From Candidatus Vogelbacteria bacterium (GTDB lineage: Bacteria > Patescibacteriota > Minisyncoccia > Phycocordibacterales > XYD1-FULL-46-19): DNA of 64,000 bases. Below are positions 1,521 to 36,141 of the stretch, one piece after another. The stretch's first letter is position 1. Each line of letters begins with the position of its first letter. The notes under the pieces are model-generated. The model saw nothing but the letters and a program-made list of their open reading frames with translations, was not told where the DNA came from and made no database searches. The position numbers were made by a program, and so were the translations under genes. The DNA is taken from the NCBI GenBank assembly GCA_903878275.1, contig CAIRHC010000007.1, positions 8,727 to 72,726 of the forward strand. The letters are read 5' to 3'.

Positions 1521-1695
1521 CACGAGTGAAACGAAGTGGGTCATTGGCAGGAATCGAACAGGAGTGGGGTCGGGAGAACATTTTGTTCTCCAGTGGAGGA
1601 AGGCAGGGAGTTCGTCTTCTGACGAACGACCGTCGGAAAACCGTGGGTTTCCGAGGAGTGAGATTTCCTCCATGGGCACACGGTAAAAAATAATT
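1521..1695 (+). repeat. tRNA-trailer structured module, copy A (diverged)
   Basis: GGCAGGAATCGAAC (1546-1559) is a perfect inverted copy of the tRNA-Arg T-arm GTTCGATTCCTGCC (1500-1513). A GC-rich hairpin GGGAGAAC-ATTTT-GTTCTCC follows, then further hairpins (GTTCGTC/GACGAAC, TCGGAAA/TTTCCGA), and the module ends with a degenerate direct repeat of the tRNA-Arg 3' end (ATTTCCTCCATGGGCACACGG, 1663-1683, versus ATTCCTGCCAGGGGCACACGA). Confidence 0.6.
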
Positions 1696-1782: not shown

Positions 1783-1960
1783 AATAATACTAGCTAGTGT
1801 TATTTGGTGGGCACGAGAAAGGCAACTGCTTGCCTTTTGTGGGAGACTCGAACAACGGAACGATATTTTTTCAGTAGAAAAAATTAGTGAGTTGGTGCCT
1901 AGACCAAGGTGAGCGACGGCGAACCTTGAGTCGAAGGAGAGTCGCTCCCCCGTGCCCACA
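1783..1960 (+). repeat. tRNA-trailer structured module, Leu copy
   Basis: TTATTTGGTGGGCACG (1800-1815) is a perfect inverted copy of CGTGCCCACCAAATAA (1772-1787). GGGAGACTCGAAC (1841-1853) is an inverted copy of the T-arm GTTCGAGTCTCCC (1759-1771). An inner hairpin AAAGGCAA-CTGC-TTGCCTTT is present, and the tRNA 3' end is repeated directly as GCTCCCCCGTGCCCACA (1944-1960). Confidence 0.6.
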
Positions 1961-5669: not shown

Positions 5670-5741
5670 CGGGGTGTAGTGCAACGGCTAGCACGAGTCC
5701 TTTGGGAGGATTTAATCCGAGTTCGAATCTCGGCACCCCGA
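5670..5741 (+). tRNA. tRNA-Pro (anticodon TGG), no encoded CCA
   Basis: Acceptor CGGGGTG/CACCCCG, anticodon stem AGTCC/GGATT with loop TTTGGGA, T-arm CCGAG-TTCGAAT-CTCGG. Confidence 0.8.
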
Positions 5742-5922
5742 CAAAAAACAAAAGAGCTGGAAATTTCCAGTTCTTTGTTTTTTGTCTCGAGATTCGAACC
5801 AGAGGTGGGGTCGGGAGGACTGGGTGTCCTCCCGTGGAGGAAATTATTCAAAACCGAGGGGTTTGAAAGCGCAATTCGCTTTAGCGAATGAGCAGTGAGT
5901 GTTCTCGGCACCCCGACAAAAT
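5742..5922 (+). repeat. tRNA-trailer structured module, copy B (canonical)
   Basis: In order: a terminator-like hairpin (AAAAAACAAAAGAGCTGGAAATTTCCAGTTCTTTGTTTTTT); TCGAGATTCGAAC, an inverted T-arm copy; the GC hairpin GGGAGGAC-TGGGT-GTCCTCCC; a 55-nt core TTATTCAAAACCGAGGGGTTTGAAAGCGCAATTCGCTTTAGCGAATGAGCAGTGAG (5844-5899); and a direct repeat of the tRNA-Pro 3' end, CTCGGCACCCCGACAAAA (5904-5922). Confidence 0.7.
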
Positions 5923-5978
5923 TTTTATATTCTCAACTTGTGTATTGACAAAGTAATTACATTGTCTATACTAGAATT

Positions 5979-6227
5979 ATGTCTACTTTAAGTATTAGGA
6001 TTGAAGATAAAACCAAAGCTGAAGCAAGTAAAACTCTGGCTCGTCTTGGGCTTGATATGTCTAGCGCGATCAAACTTTTTCTTTATCAGGTAGTAAAGGA
6101 AGACGGTCTGCCTTTTACTCCGACCAATAATCTGGCGATAATTAAAGCTCGCTTCGATACTCAAGTGCTTGAAGCCAAGAAAAACCGTGGTTTCAAGACG
6201 GCAAAAGAGGCGCTTGATGATTTATAA
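5979..6227 (+). CDS. dinJ: DinJ/RelB-family antitoxin
   Basis: MSTLSIRIEDKTKAEASKTLARLGLDMSSAIKLFLYQVVKEDGLPFTP matches the DinJ ribbon-helix-helix N-terminus; immediately followed by the yafQ-like toxin. Confidence 0.8.
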   Translation: MSTLSIRIEDKTKAEASKTLARLGLDMSSAIKLFLYQVVKEDGLPFTPTNNLAIIKARFDTQVLEAKKNRGFKTAKEALDDL

Positions 6228-6230
6228 AAT

Positions 6231-6515
6231 ATGTACATTATCAAGCGGACTAAAGATTTTGAAAGGTCTTTTAAAAAACTTAAGCAGGCGGGACTTTCAA
6301 AAAATAAAAGAAATATCTTAGAATCTGTAATTGATATAATAGCTTTGGGTCAAAAACCGAGCGAGAAATATAAAGACCATCAATTAAAAGGGGAATTGAG
6401 GTTTTTTCGTGAATGTCATATTTTTAATGATCTTTTGGTGATTTACAAAATCGAAAAAGACGAGTTGATCCTAGTTTTGGTTGACATTGGTAGTCATGCT
6501 CAATTATTTGGATAA
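6231..6515 (+). CDS. yafQ: YafQ-family mRNA interferase toxin (RelE/ParE superfamily)
   Basis: DHQLKGELRFFRECHIFNDLLVIYKIEKDELILVLVDIGSHAQLFG matches the YafQ C-terminal signature (H.LTG.W.GYRDCHI.PDWLLIY......L.LVRTGSHSELF). Confidence 0.85.
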   Translation: MYIIKRTKDFERSFKKLKQAGLSKNKRNILESVIDIIALGQKPSEKYKDHQLKGELRFFRECHIFNDLLVIYKIEKDELILVLVDIGSHAQLFG

Positions 6516-6563
6516 AACAGACGCATTTTGAATTAAGGTATTTTAAGTGGTAGGATAAAATAT

Positions 6564-6755
6564 CGGAGTGTAGTGTAACGGTAACATCCACGACACGCCC
6601 GCCTACCTTTTTATCGGGGCATAGTGTAACGGTAACATTTACGATTCGGGTTCGTAAGACTCAGGGTTCGAATCCCTGTGCCCCGACAAGAGAAGTGAGA
6701 AAAGGTGGGCAGGTGAAGGTTCGTGGGACTCAGGGTTCGAATCCCGGCACTCCGA
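6564..6755 (+). pseudogene. Disrupted or split tRNA-Pro-like gene: 5' half 6564-6590, 3' half about 6716-6755, interrupted by an insertion that carries a complete tRNA-Pro(CGG)
   Basis: The 5' half CGGAGTG-TA-GTGTAACGGTAACAT-CCACG matches the tRNA-Pro(CGG) 5' half through the D-arm. The 3' half CGTGG-GACT-CAGGG-TTCGAAT-CCCGG-CACTCCG-A carries the complementary acceptor strand and complementary anticodon-stem strands (CCACG/CGTGG). The T-stem has one mismatch. Confidence 0.45.
6615..6686 (+). tRNA. tRNA-Pro (anticodon CGG), no encoded CCA, nested between the halves of the split tRNA
   Basis: Acceptor CGGGGCA/TGCCCCG, anticodon stem TACGA/TCGTA with loop TTCGGGT, T-arm CAGGG-TTCGAAT-CCCTG. Confidence 0.75.
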
Positions 6756-6903
6756 CAAAACTGAAAAGTTTTTCGGAGTGCAGGGATTCGAACGGGAAGG
6801 GGTAGGGAAACGGGAGTTTCCCTTGGCGGAGTTATTCAAACCGAGGGGTTTGAAAGCGCAATTCGCTTTAGCGAATGAGCAGTGAGATTCCCGGCACTCC
6901 GAC
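6756..6903 (+). repeat. tRNA-trailer structured module, copy C
   Basis: TCGGAGTGCAGGGATTCGAAC is an inverted copy of the preceding 3' end GGTTCGAATCCCGGCACTCCGA. The GC hairpin is GGGAAAC-GGGA-GTTTCCC, which covaries with copies A and B. The 55-nt core (6832-6886) is near-identical to copy B. The module ends with a direct repeat ATTCCCGGCACTCCGACA (6886-6903). Confidence 0.7.
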
Positions 6904-6936
6904 ACAACGAAAAATTAATAATTTAATTAAACAGTT

Positions 6937-7449
6937 ATGATCGAACAAAATTCAAGTGTGGAAAAAATTGAAAATGTGAGGAAATTTCTAATTAGGTCGA
7001 ATGAGGCTGGTTATGCTGGTGGGGAAGATAAGAAATGGATTAAGGAGGCGGATAGCTCGACCACGATCGCTTATGAAGATGGTGATTGGAAATTTAATGA
7101 TAACTTCTTCGGTGGTGAGCCGTATGGTGGGCGGGAAGTGATTTTTAAAGAGGGAAAGCCGGAATGGATGATGGTTTATTACGGTTTGATTAGCGATAAG
7201 GACTTGGATAAAAACAAGGTTTATGGTTTTTTGCGCTCGGCTCTGAAATTGGCGCCAGCCGAAATGCCTTTGCGTGGCCCAGATCTTTTTGTGCAGGAAA
7301 TTGATGGTCAAAAGTGGGTTTATGAAAATAAGGTTGGTGGCAAGATGGAAAATTTTTCTGGTAAAGAAACTATTAGTATCGATGGCCGGGAGATTTTTTA
7401 TACGGATTATTTCGGTGGCTTGGTGGATGTGGATAGGGAGGCTATTTAA
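6937..7449 (+). CDS. Hypothetical protein (170 aa)
   Basis: Clean ORF after the tRNA region, followed by a bidirectional terminator; no motif recognised. Confidence 0.5.
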   Translation: MIEQNSSVEKIENVRKFLIRSNEAGYAGGEDKKWIKEADSSTTIAYEDGDWKFNDNFFGGEPYGGREVIFKEGKPEWMMVYYGLISDKDLDKNKVYGFLRSALKLAPAEMPLRGPDLFVQEIDGQKWVYENKVGGKMENFSGKETISIDGREIFYTDYFGGLVDVDREAI

Positions 7450-9102: not shown

Positions 9103-9513
9103 ATGTATTTTGTCGCTCAAAATTGGCAGGCTTGGTATGAAGCTTTGATCAAGCCGACTTGGACACCGAGTGCTGGAACTATCGGATTGATTTGGACGAT
9201 TCTTTACCCGATTATTTTAGGGAGTTATATTTACACTATTTATTTGTGGCGTAAAGGCAAGTTGCCGATTAAAGTTCCGCTAATTTTTTCCGTAAACGTT
9301 TTAGCTAATTTAATTTTTACGCCAATTCAATTTGGTTTGGAAAATCTCTGGCTCGCTAGTCTGGATATTTTGGTGGTTTGGACAACGATCGTTTTGCTGA
9401 TTTTTAGTGCTTGGCGTCACAATAAATTTTTAGCGCTAGTCCAGATCCCGTATCTTACATGGGTTTCAATTGCGACTGTTTTACAACTGACCGTCAACGC
9501 TTGGAATTTTTAG
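9103..9513 (+). CDS. TspO/MBR-family tryptophan-rich sensory protein
   Basis: IKPTWTPSAGTIGLIWTILYPIIL matches the TspO N-terminal signature (KPSWTPP.WVF.PVWT.LY); five predicted TM helices, Trp-rich. Confidence 0.75.
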   Translation: MYFVAQNWQAWYEALIKPTWTPSAGTIGLIWTILYPIILGSYIYTIYLWRKGKLPIKVPLIFSVNVLANLIFTPIQFGLENLWLASLDILVVWTTIVLLIFSAWRHNKFLALVQIPYLTWVSIATVLQLTVNAWNF

Positions 9514-9859
9514 AAATCATTTTAGCCAAGTAAAACAAGGGTTTCACACCGGCTAAGGCAAAAATTGGCAGCGGAAATCTGACGTTTCACAGACAAGAGA
9601 ATTGAAAAAGGTGGGTGCTTAATTACTAAAATAGTTTAAAATCAAAAATATCTAGCTGTTTAAATCTAGAAGTCCAAGGTTCGTCGGTGGCAAGATTTAA
9701 TATTTTACTCCTGTTTTGTTTCGGCTGGAAGTTTGGTTTGACTTTGATATTACTTTTTGTTTTAATGTTTGTGTGTAGTAAGTTTCCTAAATTATTTTGG
9801 GTCAAAAATAATTTAGGAAGGTCAGCTTACTCAATATTAGAATTGTTAATTTGTGTTAA

Positions 9860-10240
9860 ATGTCTAGCAAGTTATATGTCGGGGGTTTGCCATACAAAAC
9901 AAATGATGGCGAAATGCAACAGTTGTTTGCTCAAGCAGGAAGTGTGACTTCCTCACGAGTTATTATTGATAAAATGACCGGTCGTTCACGAGGTTTTGGT
10001 TTTATTGAAATGGCGTCTGATGAAGATGCGCAAAAAGCGATTTCAATGTTTAACGGTCAAGAATATGAAGGACGAAAATTGATCGTCAACGAAGCTCGTC
10101 CGATGGAAGATCGTCCTCCACGTCGTGAAGGTGGTTACAATAATAATCGCGGTGGCAATGGCGGAGGCTATGGCAGTAATGGCAGTGGTTATGGTGGCAA
10201 CAATAGTTATGGCGGAAACGGCGGAGGCAATCGCTACTAA
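9860..10240 (+). CDS. RRM-type RNA-binding protein with Gly/Asn-rich C-terminal tail
   Basis: RNP-2 LYVGGL and RNP-1 RGFGFIEM motifs; C-terminal GGNGGGYGSNGSGYGG low-complexity tail; long structured 5' UTR (9540-9859) that includes a CCTAAATTATTTTGGGTCAAAAATAATTTAGG hairpin. Confidence 0.85.
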   Translation: MSSKLYVGGLPYKTNDGEMQQLFAQAGSVTSSRVIIDKMTGRSRGFGFIEMASDEDAQKAISMFNGQEYEGRKLIVNEARPMEDRPPRREGGYNNNRGGNGGGYGSNGSGYGGNNSYGGNGGGNRY

Positions 10241-10336
10241 TTTTATTTCTTGAATTTTTAATTAAATAAAACAAAAAATCTGGCAATCTTTGTCAGATTT
10301 TTTGTTTCTAAAATTTTATCGTGGTAAAATAAAACC

Positions 10337-10558
10337 ATGTTTTATGGTTTAGCAATTTTAGCTCTCGCCTGGTTGGTTCAACTTCTTTCTGTGTGGAAAG
10401 GAAGACACACTTTGCAACCATGGTTTCTTCGCTTATCGGTGGTCGGGTTTGTGCTGATCGTTCTGGAAACTTTTGATAAAAATAATTTGCCACACTCGTG
10501 GCCGGCGCTCGCTTCGCTCGCGATTATTTTGATTTTAACCTGGCGGTTTCGGAAATAG
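10337..10558 (+). CDS. Hypothetical small membrane protein (73 aa)
   Basis: Two hydrophobic helices; followed by a terminator hairpin at 10573-10598. Confidence 0.35.
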   Translation: MFYGLAILALAWLVQLLSVWKGRHTLQPWFLRLSVVGFVLIVLETFDKNNLPHSWPALASLAIILILTWRFRK

Positions 10559-10572
10559 GATCGCAAAATAAA

Positions 10573-10598
10573 AACCGGAAAAATCCGGTTTTTATTTT
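10573..10598. terminator. Bidirectional terminator (ACCGGA-AAAAT-CCGGT + T-run)
   Basis: The hairpin is flanked by A and T runs on both sides; it serves the plus-strand gene and the minus-strand tRNA-Trp. Confidence 0.6.
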
Positions 10599-23767: not shown

Positions 23768-26700
23768 ATGTCAAAATATCAAAAACTTATCCCAACCCTA
23801 AAAATGCTTCTCTTGGTCGTGGCCTTGCTGGCTAGTAGTACGGTGGCTCTGGCTGACTACTCTGCACCGACAGACTCGCCACCAACCTGTAATCCAAATA
23901 CTCCGGGCTGTTTGGTTCCGATAAATGTTGGGACAAGTTCGGCAAGCTCACAAGAAAAGAAGGGATTGTTGAGTCTTGGTGTTTTGAGTTTGATAAGTGG
24001 TTACGTTGATACAACACTGGAAGCTGCAAAAAATATGGTCGCAACGATTGTTTCTGATACCACCTCTTTGAATATTTTTGGTAGAGGCACTTTTCCTAAT
24101 CGAGTAACAAAGGTTTGGGACAACCTTTGGGTTACTGGCACTGCCTCTTCGACAAATGTCGTAACCACAAATCTCTATGCAACAAGCACGTACGCCACTC
24201 ACTATTATTGTGCCGATGGTGGTACAACTTGTGGAATAGGTGGTACCGCTGGCGTAAAAACAATAACTGGTAATACTGGTATTACCGCATCCTCTCCTGA
24301 TTCGTCTGGTAATGTCAATTTGACAAACACTGGAATCGTCGGAATAGAACCTGGTAATGGTATCGAAGTCTCCTCAAAAGATTCTAACGGTAAAGTGACC
24401 ATAACAAACAAAAATCCGAATGCTGGTGTTTCTCAAATAACTAGCACGGGTGGTACGGTGAAAATTACCCCAACCGATGGTGGGGGGAAAGGGATTGTTA
24501 ATCTTGAGGTTGATCCTACTAAAATCGTTACCGGAGTTTCTGGCTTAAAGAAAAGTGGTAGCATAACCTTGACTGGAACTGAAACTGACGGTGTGTACAC
24601 TGGCGAAGTCACGATCGGAGGCGGAGGTCCCGGCGAATCTGTCTGGGTTCCAAACTATAATGATCCTGATCAACAGGGGCATATTGGTGTTAATTATCCG
24701 GCAGGTGCTGTCGGCATCGGTGAACATAGCCCAAATCACCAACTAGAGTTGGGAACCAATTTTACTGGTTCCACAGCTGCGCAGGACGAGTTGTTCGGCG
24801 ATATGATGGCCTCTTTTCTCGTGCTTAATTATTTTGAGACCAACCCGATAAGTAGTGTTGCTTCGAGCCGTGTAATAAATGCTCTCTATTCTGTCAAAAG
24901 AGCTGGTACAGATGGAAATACTCCACCATATAAACAAACTGATCTATATTTTAACGAAAACAAAGTTGCCACGAATGAAAATATAAATAATATCATTCAG
25001 GAATGTATCAATGCTGGCAGTTGTTCAAGTTTTGGCGACAATCTATGGTCAGTTTCAACCGACGCCAACGGTAAAAAGACAATGGCTCCGAACGGTAATC
25101 CCGATATTATAAGTCTCGGCACTGTAAATACTGGTGAATTAGGTGCTACCGACATTAAAACTATCGGCGGTGGCTTAGGCAATATTACCGCTGGACGTTA
25201 TGTTTATGCCAATCAAGGACTTTACCTTGGAAAACCGGATCCGAGTGTGCTTGGACAAAGCTCTGTCAGTCAGCTTATTGGTGATGAAAGGATTCTAAAG
25301 TGGGAAGATAGTCCGGTTTTGACTTTAAAAAACTATGCTGATTATATTACCAATTTGGGCGATAACTCTTGGATTGTTGGAGATGGTACTATTTCTCTAA
25401 AAACTCCAGCAAATAAAGTTAACATCGACTCAAAAGACATCACTATCGGTAAAATGACAGCTGACAACGTTTCCGATGGCACAGTCACTGTTCTTAGCAA
25501 TCTTGTAACAAAGAATATAGACACACCTAATGATATTACTGCTGGGAACATCAATGCTGTTTACGATGTTAAAGCAAACAGAGTTATAACTGGCCAAGAT
25601 CTTCAACTTGGTCTCGCCAACTCGATCATCCGTCAACAAAAAATTGGTGACACTGACGCTTCAGCTTTGACATTCTTAACTGGCGGACAAGCTGCCGCCA
25701 ACATTTATTCTGGCGGTCTATCTGTCGCCACTCAATACACCGCGGCGTCAATTCCTCCAAACAAAGGTGCTTATATCGAAGGTTCTGTCGGCATCGGCAC
25801 ACAGCCAGCTACCGATATGAAACTCGACGTTGTTGGTAATATCAAAGCCTCGGATAAAGTATTAGCTTCAAATCTATGTACCGTAGATGGGGCAAATTGT
25901 AAATCAACCGGAGATATTATAAACAATTTCGGCGGCACCAACGTCTGGGAGACTTCTTCTTATCCTAATGCTGTAACTGGTCCAAACATCCAAGCTGAAT
26001 ATTCTGATGCTCGAGCTGGAAATACTGGTGTTGTCGCGAAGAATATGAACGCTCTGGGTTCTTCGGGCTTTGGAGCTATTAAGGACTATGATCCCACCAA
26101 GCAGGCACCAGGAGCGCCTTATGTCGGAGATCCTTTCCGAGATTCGATCCGCTTTATGGCTTATGGAAGTAGTATTAGCGAGGGTTTGGATTCGATAAAA
26201 AAGAGCGGTGCGGAAATAATGTCTGGTGTAAATATGACCGGCGGTTTGTCTATTACTGCTGGTGCGCCTGCCGGTGATATTCGTTTCTATGCCGGCGGAC
26301 GTAAAGCTGAAAACAGGATAATGACTCTGACGAAGGCTAATGGTAAACAATATATTCAGGCTCCTTCTGCGACCTTGGGAGTAAAGGATATTACAGCAGA
26401 CTCTGTCGGCATCGGCACAGCTGCTCCCCGTGGCAGTCTAGACATCAACAAAGGTTCAGCAATGTGGTCCAGCTACAACTATGGCAAACAGCTTGTTCTT
26501 GATGCTGGTACCGGACAAAACACCGGTATGGCAATTGTCGGAGACGATGCAAAAAGCAAAAACTGGGGAATTACCGCTGGCTCTGACGGTGAGAGCTTGA
26601 CCATAAGTGCAATGCCTAAATTAGACGATTTTAGTACACCACCCGATGGTTTTATGAGTTTTAATAGAGCAACCGGTGTCTCTTTCAACAAAAATGTCGG

Positions 26701-29700
26701 TGTTAATGGGAATATTCAAGGCATTGGTGTCTTGGCTGATAATGTCACAGCAAATTCTGTACAACTAGCCGGCAATGGGGGTGGCGACGGTCTTACCTCC
26801 GATTCCAATAATAAACTTCTCTGGAATAATACTCCGGTTGGAGGCAATAATACTTTTATTGGTGGTGATAGCTCCTGGGCTTCGACTACTGATTTCTTAT
26901 ATCCAAATAGTGATCAATTCAGTAAAAACGTCGGCATCGGCACCCAATCTCCGTCCGAAAAACTAGAAGTTGCTGGAAATATTAAAGCCACTGGGAATAT
27001 CAGTGCTCAAGAAGGTTATTTCAATAAACTAGCCACATTTGGTGCCGGAGCTGTTACTTTTGGAAAACATGTTGTTAGTAGTATCTTGCAAGTCAACGGT
27101 GGTGTCGATCTGGCTGTTCACACAGGCAACGTCGGCATCGGGTTGCCTAAGATTATGCAGGCTGGAGACTCTCCCGGTAACCCCTCCGCTCCTGGCATAC
27201 CAACCGCTAAGTTAGATGTCGGCGGGGATATCAAGTCAAATTCTCTGATTTTAAATTCAAAAAATAGCGCTACTGACAACAGTGGAGCTCTTGAGGTTGT
27301 AAGGATTGGTGGAGTGCCAACTGTCCCACCTTCAGACGCAGTGACGGTTTCCAGTTGTCAGTCCTGGAGGAATGGTTACCCCACAAACTTTTTTACCGCT
27401 TACGATGATGTACAAGGTTGTAATGCCGCTGTTGATGCTGGCGATTTGGTTTTCCCTCATGAGATCATTCCTGCCTCTGGCGGGACTCCAGCTTCGGGCG
27501 GATCGGTCAGTCTCTATTTCGACGGCAAACCAGTCGGCGACAATGCGTGGACCAAAAACGGTAACGATATCACCAACAGTAATACTGGCAATGTTAATAT
27601 AAATTCAAATAACATAACGATCGGACGAATGAAAAGTGATGGCTATACCCCCGACGGTACAACACTCATCTTGAGTAATCTCGAAACAAAAAATCTTTTT
27701 TCCTATGGAGGTATTTCAAACCTAGGCAATATTACTACTCAAGGCAACGTCGGTATCGTCAATAATATCACTGGATATGTTCCCCGTGGCAGTCTAGACA
27801 TCAACAAAGGTTCAGCAATGTGGTCTGGCTCCAACTACGGCAAACAACTTGTTCTAGATGCTGGTGTCGGACAAAACACCGGTATGGCAATCGTCGGAGA
27901 TAATGGGGCTGGCAAAAACTGGGGAATTACTACCACTGGTAGTGGTGACAACCTGGTTATAAGTGCAATGCCTGGCTTGGAATATAGCGATACTGGTCAT
28001 CAACCTGATAATTTTATGAATTTTAGTAGAACAACCGGTGTATCCTTCAACAAAAATGTCAGTATCACTGGCAATGTAAATGCCAGCGGAAATATCACCG
28101 GAAACGATGTCGCCGCAAATACTCTGAATGTCCCGACAATCACGACGACCAACCTTATCGCTTCTGGTTCAGTCATCTCTCCTGTTGTCGCCTTAACTAA
28201 TAATTCTGCCAACCCCGTGTATAAAAGTCTCACTATGGACAATAGTGGAAAGCTGTTGTTTGGCGGCAAACCAGTCGGCGATAACAATTGGACAAAAGAT
28301 GCCCGGGAAAATATTAGTAACAGTAATACTGGCCTAGTCTCTGTCGGTCCAGTTAAAGATTATCTTTCGAGTTCGAACATTAAATTTGCTGTTAATGGTG
28401 GTAGTATGGTGGTAAGTGATGATCTGTATGTTGGTAGTGGAGGTTCTGACCCGAAGGGTGAGCTTATTTTGCAAGGGAAGAAGGGGATTCAGTTTTTAAA
28501 TTCGCTCGAAATTAGTGATACTGCCGCGCCTAATTCTTTGTACACAAAAAACTCCGGGTCGGACCTATACTACAATGGCCTACAGATAAATACCCCACCG
28601 TCTTGGAATCCAAGTGGCAATAATATCTCATATGCTGATACCGGCAACGTCGGCATCGGCACCAATGCTCCGCTTGGAAAATTAGATATTACTGGTGGAG
28701 CATCTTCTATCCCCCCTTCTTCAGGAGTTGCCCCGGCGACATCGCTTGCTCTTCGTTTGCACGACAACTCTAATGTCGTTTTAGATTTTGGTCTGAACAA
28801 CAGTAACGGTTCGTGGTTGCAAACAGCCAACAAAACAGACTTGAATGCAAACTATCCATTATCATTAAATCCAAACGGTGGAGGCGTCATTATTGGAAAA
28901 AACCCAATAAATGGTACCATCACTGCTGGATTGACATTGGATGTAGCCGGAGCCATAAAAGGTACCGATGTTTTTGCAACTCACTTGAATGTTGCTAATA
29001 ATGATTTTAATCCACTCGAACCAGCTATCAAGGCTGCTTCATATGTCTCTGGTCGATATGGTGGAGGATATGTTATGCGGGATAATACTAATAATTATGC
29101 GGGTATGTGGACAGACAACAACGGAAATACATTGAAGTTGTCCGCTGGCGGGTCGGCAGATAGTGGTAAATTGAATACGACCAACATAATGTCCTTAAAC
29201 TACAATGGAGATGTTGATGCGACAAATTTCTGTATAACCAGAGGTACCAAACGGAAATGTCTTTCTGACCTATTATTCACAAATTCTTCAATAAAGTTGG
29301 ATTCTCTTGGTGTAGATAAGAATACTGTTTCTTTTAAGATATCTTGGGGAAAGGTAGTCGTCTCGGATACTGTTAACTGGCGAGTTGCATACAAAGACAA
29401 CACCGGGGTGGAGAAAGAAAAATACAACATACCAATCACTGAGGCTGCCGGTGAGTACTCTGGAAGTTTTGAAGTTACTGGTGCGACCGGTAACTTTGTG
29501 TTGACAGCGTCTCTTGTTTCAGGTGGGGGTATTGATGATAGTGTTTTTGCACAATTTTATATTACCCCACCACCAACACCTAGTGTTAACATTGTGTATG
29601 CTGCCTCTGAAAAATGCCCTGCACCTATTACAGATCCAAATTGTTTCTTGCCTAAGTTTCGGTTTGACTACGCAAACATTCCTGATCACTATAAAGCGAT

Positions 29701-30898
29701 TGTCAACACTACTGGTCAATGGTTGTTTCCTGCGCCAAAACCAGGCGAGGGTGCAACTCACGGACCAGTCACCGGGGAAGGGATAGACGTTGTTGGCACC
29801 AACGTATTCAATAATGATGGTTTATCTCAACCTACTTACAGTGGCGTAGGTACGAAAGAGATGACGGTTCAAATAGTATCAGAATATGACATGGAAAATG
29901 TTCTCGTGAGTGACACGGTGCAATACAATTCTGACGGTACGATAAATGTCGATAAAGGAAGAATGGTATTTGAAGCTAACGGTATCCCGAAACAAGATGC
30001 TAACGGAAATGTGACTTGGGGCGTAGGTCTCTTTAATGACGGTGATTTTGACTGGAGTAGTGGTTACAAAATTGTTTGGTCTGAAAGCCGCAATCCTACT
30101 CTTTGGTACACTTTGGCCACTCTTGACAATCTATCTCTTACAAAAGGTGCTTCGGCGAGCTTGTATGACTACAGTGCTGGTCAAAGTACTTTCAATCCAT
30201 ACACCTCCCAGGGTCTCGTTGGTGGTCTTAGTTATGACATGAGTTTTAAAATTGTGAACGGTTCTGGGGTGGCAGTGTCACCTGTCGTGAGAGAGAACGT
30301 GACTATTTTAAAGAAAGATGGCGCTTGCGGTCCTAGTAATACTGCTTCAGGAGTTGTGCCAAATCACGTGTATTCAGTAGCTGGCTATAATAATGAAATT
30401 CGAGCAGATTCTGATTCCTGTTCAGTCGGTACTGTGGCGAGCACATTTACTCTCAATCCTGGTGGTGAACCTGGTTGGACTTGTGGCGGCTCTGGTAGTG
30501 GAACAATCAACCCGTCTCCTGACTGTAAGGGTTACTTTGCTCCGACTGCAAAGAGAGCCCCAACATATACTGTCCCATGGAGGCATACTAATAATGGCTA
30601 TTATGTAAATGTATATGATAATCAACAAATCGACCATGTAAATACTGCCACAGGGGGAGGGCTACCTTGTGTAATACGAGCATTATCAGAATTAGGGAGT
30701 GATCAGATATCTTGGATTGCTGCTAGACTTAACGCCTATGGTGCGAATAGCGGCGGGGCGCTAGAGTTAAAAATAGCTGAACCGGCATACGGGATGAGCA
30801 AGGTAACACTGGCATGGCTGTGTATGGGTGTGGACGAGAACTGGTATGAGGTTCCTAATGCTGGGCAGGTTTATAACCCTCCATTGACCACAGATTAG
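23768..30898 (+). CDS. Giant secreted surface protein (2376 aa), Gly/Thr/Asn-rich with recurring (N/S)VGIGT...KLDV motifs and internal ~100-aa duplications
   Basis: Signal peptide MSKYQKLIPTLKMLLLVVALLASSTVALA; at least 7 copies of the (V/I)GIGT motif; a duplicated block PRGSLDINKGSAMWS..NYGKQLVLDAG.GQNTGMAIVGD...NWGIT...ISAMP......F.R.TGVSFNKNV at about 26420-26720 and 27780-28090; Cys-containing C-terminal region; minus-strand ORFs inside it are antisense artefacts. Confidence 0.85.
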   Translation: MSKYQKLIPTLKMLLLVVALLASSTVALADYSAPTDSPPTCNPNTPGCLVPINVGTSSASSQEKKGLLSLGVLSLISGYVDTTLEAAKNMVATIVSDTTSLNIFGRGTFPNRVTKVWDNLWVTGTASSTNVVTTNLYATSTYATHYYCADGGTTCGIGGTAGVKTITGNTGITASSPDSSGNVNLTNTGIVGIEPGNGIEVSSKDSNGKVTITNKNPNAGVSQITSTGGTVKITPTDGGGKGIVNLEVDPTKIVTGVSGLKKSGSITLTGTETDGVYTGEVTIGGGGPGESVWVPNYNDPDQQGHIGVNYPAGAVGIGEHSPNHQLELGTNFTGSTAAQDELFGDMMASFLVLNYFETNPISSVASSRVINALYSVKRAGTDGNTPPYKQTDLYFNENKVATNENINNIIQECINAGSCSSFGDNLWSVSTDANGKKTMAPNGNPDIISLGTVNTGELGATDIKTIGGGLGNITAGRYVYANQGLYLGKPDPSVLGQSSVSQLIGDERILKWEDSPVLTLKNYADYITNLGDNSWIVGDGTISLKTPANKVNIDSKDITIGKMTADNVSDGTVTVLSNLVTKNIDTPNDITAGNINAVYDVKANRVITGQDLQLGLANSIIRQQKIGDTDASALTFLTGGQAAANIYSGGLSVATQYTAASIPPNKGAYIEGSVGIGTQPATDMKLDVVGNIKASDKVLASNLCTVDGANCKSTGDIINNFGGTNVWETSSYPNAVTGPNIQAEYSDARAGNTGVVAKNMNALGSSGFGAIKDYDPTKQAPGAPYVGDPFRDSIRFMAYGSSISEGLDSIKKSGAEIMSGVNMTGGLSITAGAPAGDIRFYAGGRKAENRIMTLTKANGKQYIQAPSATLGVKDITADSVGIGTAAPRGSLDINKGSAMWSSYNYGKQLVLDAGTGQNTGMAIVGDDAKSKNWGITAGSDGESLTISAMPKLDDFSTPPDGFMSFNRATGVSFNKNVGVNGNIQGIGVLADNVTANSVQLAGNGGGDGLTSDSNNKLLWNNTPVGGNNTFIGGDSSWASTTDFLYPNSDQFSKNVGIGTQSPSEKLEVAGNIKATGNISAQEGYFNKLATFGAGAVTFGKHVVSSILQVNGGVDLAVHTGNVGIGLPKIMQAGDSPGNPSAPGIPTAKLDVGGDIKSNSLILNSKNSATDNSGALEVVRIGGVPTVPPSDAVTVSSCQSWRNGYPTNFFTAYDDVQGCNAAVDAGDLVFPHEIIPASGGTPASGGSVSLYFDGKPVGDNAWTKNGNDITNSNTGNVNINSNNITIGRMKSDGYTPDGTTLILSNLETKNLFSYGGISNLGNITTQGNVGIVNNITGYVPRGSLDINKGSAMWSGSNYGKQLVLDAGVGQNTGMAIVGDNGAGKNWGITTTGSGDNLVISAMPGLEYSDTGHQPDNFMNFSRTTGVSFNKNVSITGNVNASGNITGNDVAANTLNVPTITTTNLIASGSVISPVVALTNNSANPVYKSLTMDNSGKLLFGGKPVGDNNWTKDARENISNSNTGLVSVGPVKDYLSSSNIKFAVNGGSMVVSDDLYVGSGGSDPKGELILQGKKGIQFLNSLEISDTAAPNSLYTKNSGSDLYYNGLQINTPPSWNPSGNNISYADTGNVGIGTNAPLGKLDITGGASSIPPSSGVAPATSLALRLHDNSNVVLDFGLNNSNGSWLQTANKTDLNANYPLSLNPNGGGVIIGKNPINGTITAGLTLDVAGAIKGTDVFATHLNVANNDFNPLEPAIKAASYVSGRYGGGYVMRDNTNNYAGMWTDNNGNTLKLSAGGSADSGKLNTTNIMSLNYNGDVDATNFCITRGTKRKCLSDLLFTNSSIKLDSLGVDKNTVSFKISWGKVVVSDTVNWRVAYKDNTGVEKEKYNIPITEAAGEYSGSFEVTGATGNFVLTASLVSGGGIDDSVFAQFYITPPPTPSVNIVYAASEKCPAPITDPNCFLPKFRFDYANIPDHYKAIVNTTGQWLFPAPKPGEGATHGPVTGEGIDVVGTNVFNNDGLSQPTYSGVGTKEMTVQIVSEYDMENVLVSDTVQYNSDGTINVDKGRMVFEANGIPKQDANGNVTWGVGLFNDGDFDWSSGYKIVWSESRNPTLWYTLATLDNLSLTKGASASLYDYSAGQSTFNPYTSQGLVGGLSYDMSFKIVNGSGVAVSPVVRENVTILKKDGACGPSNTASGVVPNHVYSVAGYNNEIRADSDSCSVGTVASTFTLNPGGEPGWTCGGSGSGTINPSPDCKGYFAPTAKRAPTYTVPWRHTNNGYYVNVYDNQQIDHVNTATGGGLPCVIRALSELGSDQISWIAARLNAYGANSGGALELKIAEPAYGMSKVTLAWLCMGVDENWYEVPNAGQVYNPPLTTD

Positions 30899-34386: not shown

Positions 34387-36141
34387 ATGCCTATCGAAGT
34401 TGGACCACTAAAAAAGTTTTTACTTGATGCTCGCTTGATTTCCAAAAGTGATTTGGAAATTGCCGAGCAGGAATCGATCGAGAAAAAAACTCGACTCGAG
34501 GATGTTTTATTGAACAAGGGGCTTTTATCGGAAGACGATATTCGTCAGGTCAAAGCTTATGTTGGCGGTATTCCGTTTGTCGATTTAAAAAACCAAAAAA
34601 TTCCGAAAGATATTTTGTTTATCGTGCCCGAACCACTCGCTCGCAAGCACAACATAATTGCCTACAACAAGACACCGGCTGGTTTGGAGGTGGCGATGCT
34701 TGATCCGCTTGATCTCGAGCACATTGATTTCATCCGCAAAAGTTCTGGTCTGAAAATTTTACCTCGTCTGACCGACACCGAATCAATCAAAAAAACTTTA
34801 CTGCTCTATCAAAAAAGTTTGAAAGCCGAGTTTGGCGATATTATCCAAAAGGAAACTCTGGCGATTAAAAATTTGGCCAACACTAAAAGTGGTGAAGAAG
34901 TGAGTGCAGTTGAGTTACAAAAGCTTGCTGAAGATTTACCGGTTATTCGCATCGTCGATACGGTTTTGTCGCACGCCATTATGCAAAAAGCGTCGGATAT
35001 TCATATCGAGCCATTTGAAAAAGAAGTTTTGATTCGTTATCGGCTTGACGGCGTGCTTTACGACGCAATGGTCTTACCGAAAGAGACGGCTTCCGGCTTG
35101 GTCGCACGCATAAAAGTGCTGACCAATCTTCGTCTCGATGAAAAAAGATTGCCACAAGACGGGCGTTTCAAAATTCAAAACAAGGATCAGAATGTATCTT
35201 TTCGTGTTTCGACTTTGCCGACCAGCTTTGGTGAAAAGATTGTAATGCGTCTTTTGCCTGATGCGACCAGCGATCTGACGCTCGAGAGTATGGGTTTTCA
35301 CGGGACTGATTTGGAAAAAATCCAGGAAGCGCTCAAACAAACGACCGGGATGGTCTTGGTCACTGGTCCGACCGGTTCGGGAAAATCGACCACAGTTTAT
35401 ACGATTTTAAATATTTTAAATACGCCAGGGGTTAATATTTCCACTATTGAAGATCCGATCGAATATCAGATGCCGAGGATTAACCAAACTCAAGTCAAAC
35501 CAGAAATTGGTCTAACCTTTGCTGGCGGTTTGCGTGCCCTCGTCCGCCAAGATCCAGATATTATTATGGTTGGGGAAATTCGCGATCGTGAGACGGCGGG
35601 GCTGGCTATCAATGCCGCTTTGACTGGCCACTTGGTTTTATCGACCTTGCACACCAATTCGGCGGCGGGCACTTTGCCTCGTTTGCTTGATATGGGTGTC
35701 GAGCCATTTTTGGTGACCTCGACCATTAAAATTGTCATTGCTCAAAGACTGGTTCGACGCTTGACCGACGAAAAAGAAGAATACAAATTGACCGAAGCGG
35801 AACTGGCGGACATTGGCAAACACGCTGATTTGACGGCGGTGCTTGCTTTGCTAAAAAAAGAAAGAATTTTAAAAATGACCGACACTTGGCAAGATGTTAG
35901 TTTTTATCGACCGAAAGCTGGCGTTGATGAAAAAGAAGCCTATACTGGTCGGATTTGTATTACGGAAATTTTAACAATGAATCGGGCGTTGCGCGATTTG
36001 ATTACCGAAAACAAAACCGCCGACGAGCTAGAAGAGTTTGCCAAAAAAGCCGGAATGATCTCGATGCTCGAAGATGGTATTTTTAAAGCGGCACAAGGTA
36101 TTACGTCCATTGAAGAAGTTTTTCGAGCGGTAAGTGAATAA
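34387..36141 (+). CDS. pilB: Type IV pilus assembly ATPase PilB (GspE family)
   Basis: Walker A GPTGSGKST; GspE N-domain; His-box region LSTLHTNSAAG. Confidence 0.9.
   Translation: MPIEVGPLKKFLLDARLISKSDLEIAEQESIEKKTRLEDVLLNKGLLSEDDIRQVKAYVGGIPFVDLKNQKIPKDILFIVPEPLARKHNIIAYNKTPAGLEVAMLDPLDLEHIDFIRKSSGLKILPRLTDTESIKKTLLLYQKSLKAEFGDIIQKETLAIKNLANTKSGEEVSAVELQKLAEDLPVIRIVDTVLSHAIMQKASDIHIEPFEKEVLIRYRLDGVLYDAMVLPKETASGLVARIKVLTNLRLDEKRLPQDGRFKIQNKDQNVSFRVSTLPTSFGEKIVMRLLPDATSDLTLESMGFHGTDLEKIQEALKQTTGMVLVTGPTGSGKSTTVYTILNILNTPGVNISTIEDPIEYQMPRINQTQVKPEIGLTFAGGLRALVRQDPDIIMVGEIRDRETAGLAINAALTGHLVLSTLHTNSAAGTLPRLLDMGVEPFLVTSTIKIVIAQRLVRRLTDEKEEYKLTEAELADIGKHADLTAVLALLKKERILKMTDTWQDVSFYRPKAGVDEKEAYTGRICITEILTMNRALRDLITENKTADELEEFAKKAGMISMLEDGIFKAAQGITSIEEVFRAVSE

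Follow-up and report, generated by a model that had tools for sequence, protein, structure and literature searches.

Can a complete tRNA gene reside within the anticodon of another tRNA gene, and what kind of arrangement would that be? The question is raised by a 192-nt locus at positions 6564–6755 of a stretch of 64,000 nucleotides from a Candidatus Vogelbacteria bacterium (hereafter the window, to which all unassigned coordinates refer). Here, the two halves of a tRNA-Pro(CGG) gene (the outer gene) enclose an insert with an entire second tRNA-Pro(CGG) gene (the inner gene); we refer to the whole as the nested unit. The same anatomy recurs in other genomes, relatives carry uninterrupted alleles at the syntenic locus, and the helix that closes the insert covaries. 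The reading that we favour with moderate confidence is that a resident tRNA-Pro(CGG) was interrupted between positions 35 and 36 by a promoterless, helix-closed insert that carries a working replacement tRNA and moves laterally.

Anatomy of the nested unit

The locus comprises the following parts, with subdivisions of the outer halves given below each half.

6528–6556 (+): weak sigma-70-like promoter TTGAAT-17 nt-TAGGAT, recognised by eye, 7 nt upstream of base 6564
6564–6593 (+): 5' half of the outer tRNA-Pro(CGG), with acceptor strand, D arm and 5' strand of the anticodon stem
6564–6570 (+): outer acceptor 5' strand CGGAGTG
6573–6587 (+): outer D arm GTGT-AACGGTA-ACAT, identical to the D arm of the inner gene
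6588–6593 (+): outer anticodon-stem 5' strand (C)CACGA
6594–6597 (+): remnant of anticodon-loop positions 32–35, CACG (TTCG in the uninterrupted allele), with C34 and G35 retained and U32 and U33 gone
6598–6607 (+): 5' strand of the closing helix, CCCGCCTACC (10 nt), paired with 6704–6713 in the minimum-free-energy fold
6608–6614 (+): linker TTTTTAT, the 5' leader of the inner tRNA, whose T-run pairs with the A-run 6700–6703
6615–6686 (+): inner tRNA-Pro(CGG), complete and canonical (ARAGORN, Rfam)
6687–6703 (+): A-rich spacer (17 nt), the 3' trailer of the inner tRNA, differing in length and sequence from the spacers of other units
6704–6713 (+): 3' strand of the closing helix, GGTGGGCAGG
6714–6720 (+): invariant TGAAGGT, identical in all four units known; its TGAA (6714–6717) forms the last four nucleotides of the insert
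6718–6720 (+): remnant of anticodon-loop positions 36–38 of the outer tRNA, GGT, the second part of TGAAGGT
6721–6755 (+): 3' half of the outer tRNA-Pro(CGG), from the anticodon-stem 3' strand to A73
6721–6726 (+): outer anticodon-stem 3' strand TCGTG(G)
6727–6730 (+): outer variable loop
6731–6747 (+): outer T arm CAGGG-TTCGAAT-CCCGG, with CCCGG in place of CCCTG
6748–6754 (+): outer acceptor 3' strand CACTCCG, followed by A73 at 6755

An earlier note on this DNA had described two halves with complementary acceptor and anticodon-stem strands around a complete tRNA-Pro(CGG), and this is how the sequence reads. The distance of about 125 nt proposed there comes close to the 127 nt that separate the anticodon-stem strands (6594–6720), of which 120 nt (6598–6717) are insert and 7 nt are loop remnant (CACG and GGT). 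Calling the outer gene Pro-like was correct as to the amino acid and understated its identity, which is tRNA-Pro(CGG): in-silico deletion of 6598–6717 yields 72 nt that are called tRNA-Pro(cgg) by ARAGORN at default settings, despite the loop CACGGGU with A33 and an A.G mismatch at T-stem pair 50:64. The joined halves (6564–6597 and 6718–6755) match the uninterrupted tRNA of six relatives at 69 of 72 positions, the three substitutions being TT to CA at positions 32–33 and T to G at position 64; accordingly, the 5' half (6564–6593) agrees with that allele in 30 of 30 bases and the 3' half (6721–6755) in 34 of 35. The junction 6597|6718 reads ...ACAUCCACGACACG|GGUUCGUGGGACU... (CCACGACACG|GGTTCGTGG), which places the insert between anticodon nucleotides G35 and G36.

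As encoded, the outer gene escapes the tools at hand. In the intron-tolerant mode of ARAGORN (-i0,300), a check that the earlier note had proposed, the inner gene alone is called, and introns of 0–300 nt with a lowered threshold (-ps80) merely bring up a spurious tRNA-Ala in an element further downstream. Rfam likewise gives no tRNA match for the outer halves at this locus. U33 is near-universal in elongator tRNAs, and its absence from the outer loop, already remarked on in the earlier note, is confirmed by the post-excision loop CACGGGU. Because of this loss, a spliced outer product would be a poor decoder in the window, as it would be in the related locus L072 described below. With A at position 33 and one T-stem pair broken, the outer halves of the window probably no longer represent a decoding tRNA.

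The inner gene, by comparison with the Rfam tRNA model, scores 62.5 bits at 6615–6686 (gathering score 29), and ARAGORN calls it as tRNA-Pro(cgg) at 6615–6687. It is a canonical tRNA with the proline identity elements, namely C1:G72, A73, U33, the CGG anticodon with G35 and G36, and G37, while CCA is not encoded. No promoter appears to belong to it: on the + strand, the scan for promoter-like sites comes up empty from 6324 to the inner tRNA, a range that includes the interval between the outer 5' half and the inner tRNA. The candidate in front of the outer gene, TTGAAT-17-TAGGAT, agrees with the consensus at 8 of 12 positions and hence stays under the scan threshold of 9.

Folding of the 192-nt unit gives −76.1 kcal/mol (z = −3.84), and none of 200 shuffled sequences is as stable. 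The fold consists of the outer acceptor stem, D arm and anticodon stem, the closing helix, the inner tRNA and the outer T arm. There is no open reading frame (ORF) within the 120-nt insert and no integrase or transposase among the ORFs within about 5 kb of it. The insert is not flanked by direct repeats, since its junctions CCACGA-CACG-CCC... and ...GG-TGAAGGT-TCGTGG share none, and no target-site duplication is present. Reading the insert as a miniature inverted-repeat transposable element finds no support, as the arms are identical at 7–8 of 10 positions as DNA inverted repeats, pair better as RNA with G.U, and lack a target-site duplication. Rfam scans at E <= 10 (6540–6940) and at E <= 1 (eight related loci) returned nothing besides tRNAs, hairpin-driven microRNA noise and a sub-threshold match to tmRNA_permuted, and on this basis Y RNA and known ribozymes, too, were rejected as the identity of the locus.

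Recurrence and uninterrupted alleles

Related loci were collected by a genome scan with the outer 3' end as query (one genome per species; at least 120 loci), by a metagenome scan with AAGGTGNNNNGGTGAAGGTT, and via YraN-syntenic contigs, with synteny tested by tblastn. The matches listed in the genome scan are mostly tRNA-Pro genes of Patescibacteria, while those of the metagenome scan are mostly chance matches, with one relevant locus among the 120 listed. The nested architecture was found again in L072, a Paceibacterota metagenome-assembled genome (MAG), in the same tRNA cluster. The metagenome contig L126 carries two further units 0.4 kb apart, at 9448–9633 and 10053–10292 (−), one built around tRNA-Pro(CGG) and the other around tRNA-Pro(GGG), the latter in halves that resemble a resident tRNA-Pro(GGG). 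Beyond these, an orphan T-arm screen over all collected loci revealed no nested unit, and a scan of viral contigs for the 3' signature of the insert gave 88 chance matches, none of which adjoins a T arm. An assembly artefact is ruled out, given that the nested design is present in three independent assemblies.

Common to all four units are the insertion point, a homologous closing helix of 10 bp with a T-run/A-run after it, and the invariant TGAAGGT, and in each of them the nested design is recovered by energy-only folding. The linker TTTTTAT is identical in the window and L072 and is replaced by TTTTTATC in L126a. Pairing was counted in a hand-built core alignment of selected segments (83 columns, four sequences) that leaves out the D arms, inner tRNAs, spacers and lineage-specific hairpins. 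In this alignment, 91% of the cells are paired versus 37–52% when the partners are slid, and none of 500 shuffles reaches the observed values. Nine pairs have changed on both sides, three of them in the closing helix, which is part of the insert alone. As the alignment is hand-built and holds four sequences, we regard this covariation as supportive, not conclusive.

The units differ in the state of their outer genes. Loop positions 32–35 read CGCG in L072 and TTCG in L126a, and the loops expected after excision would be CACGGGU in the window, CGCGGGU in L072, a perfect UUCGGGU in L126a and an irregular one in L126b. L072 and L126a have acquired hairpins in or near the D arm and beside the anticodon stem, and L126b shows one acceptor mismatch; the outer stems are largely intact in all four units. 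From window to L072, the insert spacer and helix strands differ by 30–50%, while the outer halves are about 4% different from the intact allele, a pattern that would arise if the gene is very conserved and was interrupted recently, or if the outer halves are under some constraint. In L126, the 3' halves of the two units are near-identical, which suggests recombination or homogenisation between them.

The earlier note had asked for a comparison of the same locus in related genomes, and this comparison lends support to its preferred reading of a tRNA split in the anticodon loop by a segment with a replacement tRNA. The same uninterrupted 72-nt tRNA-Pro(CGG) with the loop TTCGGGT occurs in six genomes (L241, L246, L251, L255, L068 and L035) at the syntenic locus. 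For L035 and L068, where the genome scan gives the gene as ...ACATCCACGA-TTCGGGT-TCGTGGGACTCAGGGTTCGAATCCCTGCACTCCGA, synteny with the window extends by tblastn to YraN, RelB, YafQ, DUF5680, DUF5652 and a class IV aminotransferase. Around the nested unit itself, the neighbouring genes encode RelB, YafQ, DUF5680, DUF5652, TrmB and a radical SAM protein. The hairpin and downstream element found behind the outer gene in the window also come after the intact gene of L241; L249 and L253 have acceptor variants of the uninterrupted tRNA. None of eight further YraN-syntenic lineages is nested, and they serve as empty alleles. L243 has an inner-type tRNA-Pro(CGG) standing alone (6951–7023, acceptor CGGGGCA), which would be the expected look of the end state of a replacement after loss of the relic halves. 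Its T loop is an unusual TCCGAAT instead of TTCGAAT, and no outer-type gene lies in the 12-kb locus.

By YraN identity, L072 falls inside a 73–85% group of eight genomes with un-nested tRNA-Pro(CGG), while the window (57–64%) and L126 (50–55%) are both outside it and mutually distant. Judged by this one marker, nesting is polyphyletic. Lateral spread is a simpler account of this pattern than repeated loss, because a loss that restores a perfect TTCGGGT loop time and again is unlikely. Hence, the unit probably spreads laterally, and it bears the generic marks of mobile introns: the same site in different hosts, empty alleles in at least six relatives, and a distribution at odds with YraN. A one-off accident fits poorly with the shared insertion point, the compensatory closing helix, the invariant TGAAGGT and the polyphyletic distribution. 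Inert debris, a term that the earlier note used for one possible outcome, fits no better and is not established, with the unit recurring at three further loci in two other assemblies. Taken together, recurrence, shared features and distribution argue for a travelling or selected unit and not for random damage.

The surroundings of the tRNA-Pro genes vary as well. RelB-YafQ (5979–6515 in the window) precedes the nested gene here, follows it in L072, follows tRNA-Pro(GGG) in L068, and is again placed differently relative to the tRNA-Pro genes in L251; given this shifting position, the neighbourhood looks like a rearrangement hot spot. A tRNA-Pro(GGG) gene lies about 100–700 nt from tRNA-Pro(CGG) in L241, L251, L255, L068, L035, L249 and L072 and is absent from the window (1–64000).

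A proposed replacement-carrying insert and its alternatives

In the account that we favour, the whole nested unit would be transcribed from the promoter of the interrupted gene. The outer 5' half together with the 5' arm of the insert would then constitute a leader, and the 3' arm of the insert together with the outer 3' half a trailer, held together by pairing in the closing helix and in the former anticodon and acceptor stems. Release of the inner tRNA could be the work of RNase P and, at the 3' side, an endonuclease such as RNase Z, after which CCA would be added; this tRNA would act as the working tRNA-Pro(CGG). Insertion would be harmless, because the insert carries what the insertion destroys, that is, its own copy of the gene. 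The unit may move between lineages, most plausibly by recombination through the near-invariant tRNA halves that flank the insert; speculatively, DNA uptake would come first, and the invariant halves of 30–38 nt would then guide the exchange.

Several points weigh against this account. The processing steps assigned to the inner tRNA are deduced, and no recombinase, homing endonuclease or target-site duplication that could explain movement was found at the locus. Polyphyly is read from one protein of 140 aa (YraN), and the nested units known number at least four from at least three assemblies among the matches listed. The covariation figures lean towards the proposed structure, as the segments were picked by hand, and changes in the outer acceptor and T stems could mirror different resident tRNAs instead of selection after insertion. 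In addition, the outer stems are better kept than neutral decay predicts if the unit is old, and the two additional hairpins in the outer parts of L072 are homologous to those of L126a. Both observations suggest some constraint on the outer halves.

Such constraint would be explained if the outer halves were a functional, non-decoding RNA, either as a leader-trailer clamp for processing of the inner tRNA or as a two-piece tRNA-like scaffold that is left once the inner tRNA has been cut out and is built from the acceptor stem, the T arm and an anticodon arm that is long and broken. In line with this idea, the acceptor, anticodon and T stems still pair in each of the four units although their sequences differ, the hairpins that L072 and L126a have in common are clean and do not resemble random damage, and the outer halves diverge less from the intact allele than the insert spacer and helix do between the window and L072. 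However, recent insertions into a very conserved resident tRNA would produce the same pattern, the T-stem change in the window and the acceptor mismatch in L126b are disruptive, and relatives with a stand-alone tRNA-Pro(CGG) manage without any scaffold. We therefore deem this alternative unlikely, albeit the most serious one. Less likely still is a true intron, from which the 120-nt insert would be excised and the outer halves ligated, so that the locus would give rise to two tRNA-Pro(CGG) species. The inner tRNA would then be an intron-encoded gene, set free either by RNase P plus RNase Z, the remaining pieces being trimmed and ligated afterwards, or by an unknown endonuclease. The single exact site within the anticodon, the helix-closed ends without target-site duplication and the sporadic occurrence among relatives constitute the usual footprint of mobile introns. 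Moreover, the outer stems are preserved, C34, G35 and G36 are kept in the window, L072 and L126a, and excision in L126a would restore the perfect loop UUCGGGU, with the 5' exon end UUCG able to pair with the terminal UGAA of the insert. Against this stand the loss of U33 in the window (A33) and L072 (G33), the irregular loop of L126b and the disrupted D arms of L072 and L126a. In addition, group I introns and other ribozymes are without a match in Rfam at E <= 10, 120 nt including a 72-nt tRNA are too short for a catalytic core, a bulge-helix-bulge motif is absent, and a tRNA splicing endonuclease is not known from Bacteria (PMC4033280). In the window, Pfam scans of 20 ORFs (19 from its first 21 kb and the one at 34387–36141) gave no match to the EndA family.

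Two further explanations start from what tRNA genes are otherwise known to attract or resemble. If the tRNA-Pro genes here were integration hot spots, the orphan halves could be att-site remnants left behind by an integrase. The shifting place of the RelB-YafQ module with respect to the tRNA-Pro genes (window, L072, L068 and L251) would suit this view, and classic orphan tRNA-Pro 3' halves do occur in Oscillospiraceae loci and in L071, L086 and L114. A single integration, however, leaves a restored tRNA and one displaced 3' fragment between direct repeats, not two orphaned halves around a complete third gene, and neither the missing direct repeats, the want of an integrase or transposase gene within about 5 kb, nor the covarying closing helix agrees with debris of this origin, which we consider very improbable. 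A permuted two-piece transfer-messenger RNA (tmRNA)-like gene at 6701–6814 was suggested by weak Rfam matches to tmRNA_permuted (22 bits) and beta_tmRNA (15.9 bits). Like such a gene, the locus presents a T arm with the acceptor 3' strand, a loop, the complementary acceptor 5' strand and a D-loop analogue, here GGAUUCGA. The match is limited to the T arm, the acceptor hairpin and GGAUUCGA, and 22 bits are far from the gathering score of 47. Furthermore, the acceptor CGGAGUG/CACUCCG has G3:C70 and not the alanine identity pair G3:U70, a tag reading frame and pseudoknots are missing, ARAGORN reports no tmRNA, and the downstream piece is a member of a repeated family, of which the window holds three model-scored copies that each correspond to a different tRNA. 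This candidate can be regarded as effectively refuted.

Returning to the replacement-carrying insert, a bolder generalisation is conceivable, which we put forward tentatively and hold to be possible rather than probable: the insert may represent a new class of laterally mobile elements in tRNA genes of bacteria from the Candidate Phyla Radiation (CPR), a self-compensating cassette without ribozyme or enzyme gene that would settle within the anticodon of a tRNA-Pro gene, use the promoter of its target and carry the same isoacceptor in full, at no loss to the host. Such a cassette could spread by recombination through invariant tRNA halves. In a stronger version, it could be a tRNA-encoding intron of bacterial tRNA genes that depends on a protein or on RNase P.

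Downstream elements and comparison with known systems

The window is AT-rich (about 40% G+C), and for the proteins that it encodes (among them RNase Y, H+-pyrophosphatase, type IV pilus ATPase, YraN and RelB/YafQ), the best matches come from MAGs of Candidatus Paceibacterota and other Patescibacteria. An ORF of 2376 aa extends over 23768–30898 (+). ARAGORN detects six tRNA genes, including tRNA-Pro(TGG) at 5670 and the inner tRNA-Pro(CGG). Four of the window's tRNA genes are each followed by an element whose ends copy the 3' end of that very tRNA:

6774–6902 (+): structured element beside the nested unit, anchored on it but separate, after the outer tRNA-Pro(CGG); 140 bits with the covariance model R1
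5784–5916 (+): paralogous element after tRNA-Pro(TGG)
1544–1678 (+): paralogous element after tRNA-Arg(TCG)
1783–1960 (+): element of a second subfamily after tRNA-Leu(CAG)

The first three lie 18–42 nt downstream of their tRNA gene. The element at 6774–6902, on which the earlier note is silent, consists of an inverted copy of the outer 3' end (CGGAGTG-CAGGG-ATTCGAAC, approximately the last 20 nt of the tRNA), three covarying hairpins, and a direct copy (TTCCCGGCACTCCGA, approximately the last 14 nt). R1, built from a five-sequence alignment with 32 consensus pairs, 10 of which show compensatory changes, matches three times in the window, and a further 11 copies come from 88 CPR loci. Each of the 14 is located just downstream of a tRNA gene on the same strand, with both ends matching that tRNA (Pro, Arg or Gly; Pro and Gly among the 11). 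No Rfam family corresponds to these elements in the scans described above. A retrovirus-like primer-binding site was rejected as an explanation of the inverted copy, as its complementarity enters the genomic trailer and not CCA, and spans the whole T loop. The inverted copy after tRNA-Leu is an exception in that its complementarity includes CCA, as this gene encodes CCA. The latter element (1783–1960) contains TGGTGGGCACG, which is complementary to the tRNA 3' terminus with its CCA, as well as the hairpin GGCAACTGCTTGCC, a T arm in inverted orientation, a GAGCGACGGCGA loop and a direct copy of the tRNA 3' end, and has relatives in L023, L029, L035, L045, L050, L060, L076 and L098. Possibly, a degenerate stretch of the second subfamily with GAGCGAAGCGAG is present at about 10490–10598 (−), downstream of tRNA-Gly(TCC). 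The nested cassette may be related to these tRNA-matched elements, which are themselves unexplained and merit a separate study.

Other duplications of tRNA-Pro 3' ends came to light in the collected loci. In L071 (~5960–6070), L086 and L114, tRNA-Pro(TGG) is followed by about 65 nt with a hairpin CAGAAACATGTTATGTTTCTG and then a second copy of its last 32 nt, whose T stem in L086 has changed with compensation (CCGAG/CTCGG); this duplication is of a different kind from the nested unit. Five Oscillospiraceae loci (L001, L055, L074, L095 and L117) contain orphan tRNA-Pro(CGG) 3' halves that begin in the anticodon loop, with unrelated sequence in front of them, and these have the appearance of common attachment-site remnants left by integrated elements. 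At 6772–6826 (−) of L045, a Saccharibacteria contig, the type III hammerhead ribozyme model scores 40.5 bits (gathering score 48.5; E = 2.5e-5).

According to a review from 2014, bacterial tRNA genes are uniform in structure, the sole significant departure being group I and II introns (PMC4033280). Limited literature searches yielded no report of a nested-tRNA design later than that review, and none of nested tRNA genes or tRNA-like RNAs in CPR bacteria. The nested unit recurs and is probably mobile, an architecture without a described bacterial counterpart. For Bacteria, a tRNA gene lodged whole within the anticodon of another would constitute a novel type of gene architecture, given that the design is repeated across several genomes, that covariation is seen in its closing helix, and that its distribution suggests lateral spread. 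If the outer halves were joined, this would amount to a new intron type in a domain thought to be free of protein-dependent tRNA splicing. If they are not joined, it would be an insertion into an essential single-copy gene made neutral by the replacement that it carries. On the practical side, the outer gene is missed by tRNA finders, and, considering nested units and downstream elements together, the seemingly intergenic DNA of CPR tRNA clusters is rich in conserved RNA-like structure outside any Rfam family.

Among known systems, the group I introns of bacterial tRNAs (cyanobacterial tRNA-Leu(UAA) and tRNA-fMet, proteobacterial tRNA-Arg and tRNA-Ile) also interrupt the anticodon loop, occur sporadically with uninterrupted alleles in close relatives, and leave no target-site duplication. 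In contrast to them, the nested insert lies between positions 35 and 36 instead of 37 and 38, measures 120 nt and has a whole tRNA gene aboard. Its 5' exon ends in ...CACG without a terminal U and the insert in ...TGAA without a terminal G, and the group I core (Rfam Intron_gpI) finds no match at E <= 10 in 6540–6940 or at E <= 1 in L126. Self-splicing is implausible.

Archaeal bulge-helix-bulge introns and the split and tri-split tRNA genes of Nanoarchaeum and Caldivirga likewise have two halves joined by a helix that extends the anticodon stem, and an RNA gene within a tRNA intron has a precedent in the C/D box RNA of the archaeal tRNA-Trp intron. The nested unit differs in lacking the 3-4-3 motif, in its bacterial host and in having its halves in cis on one transcript. 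In the window, CACG/UGAA forms two of four pairs without a 5' bulge, and the folds show a continuous helix with an asymmetric internal loop; L126a has a bulge-helix-bulge-like 4 bp (UUCG/UGAA), again without a 5' bulge. Moreover, the insert supplies the same tRNA a second time as its cargo, for which reason joining of the outer halves would be unnecessary.

With tRNA pseudogenes and rearrangement fragments, the outer gene of the window shares that it is probably not decoding, having lost U33 and one T-stem pair. Unlike such random debris, the nested architecture is present at three more loci, where the closing helix covaries and one motif is invariant. The same logic is followed by integrative elements that target tRNA genes, such as tyrosine-integrase islands with the anticodon-loop sublocation, which enter at the anticodon loop and supply the missing tRNA sequence. 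While these elements bring a 3' portion of the tRNA, an integrase and direct repeats over kilobases, the nested insert brings a complete tRNA and neither of the latter two, so that the replacement-carrying logic familiar from genomic islands would here be shrunk to 120 nt.

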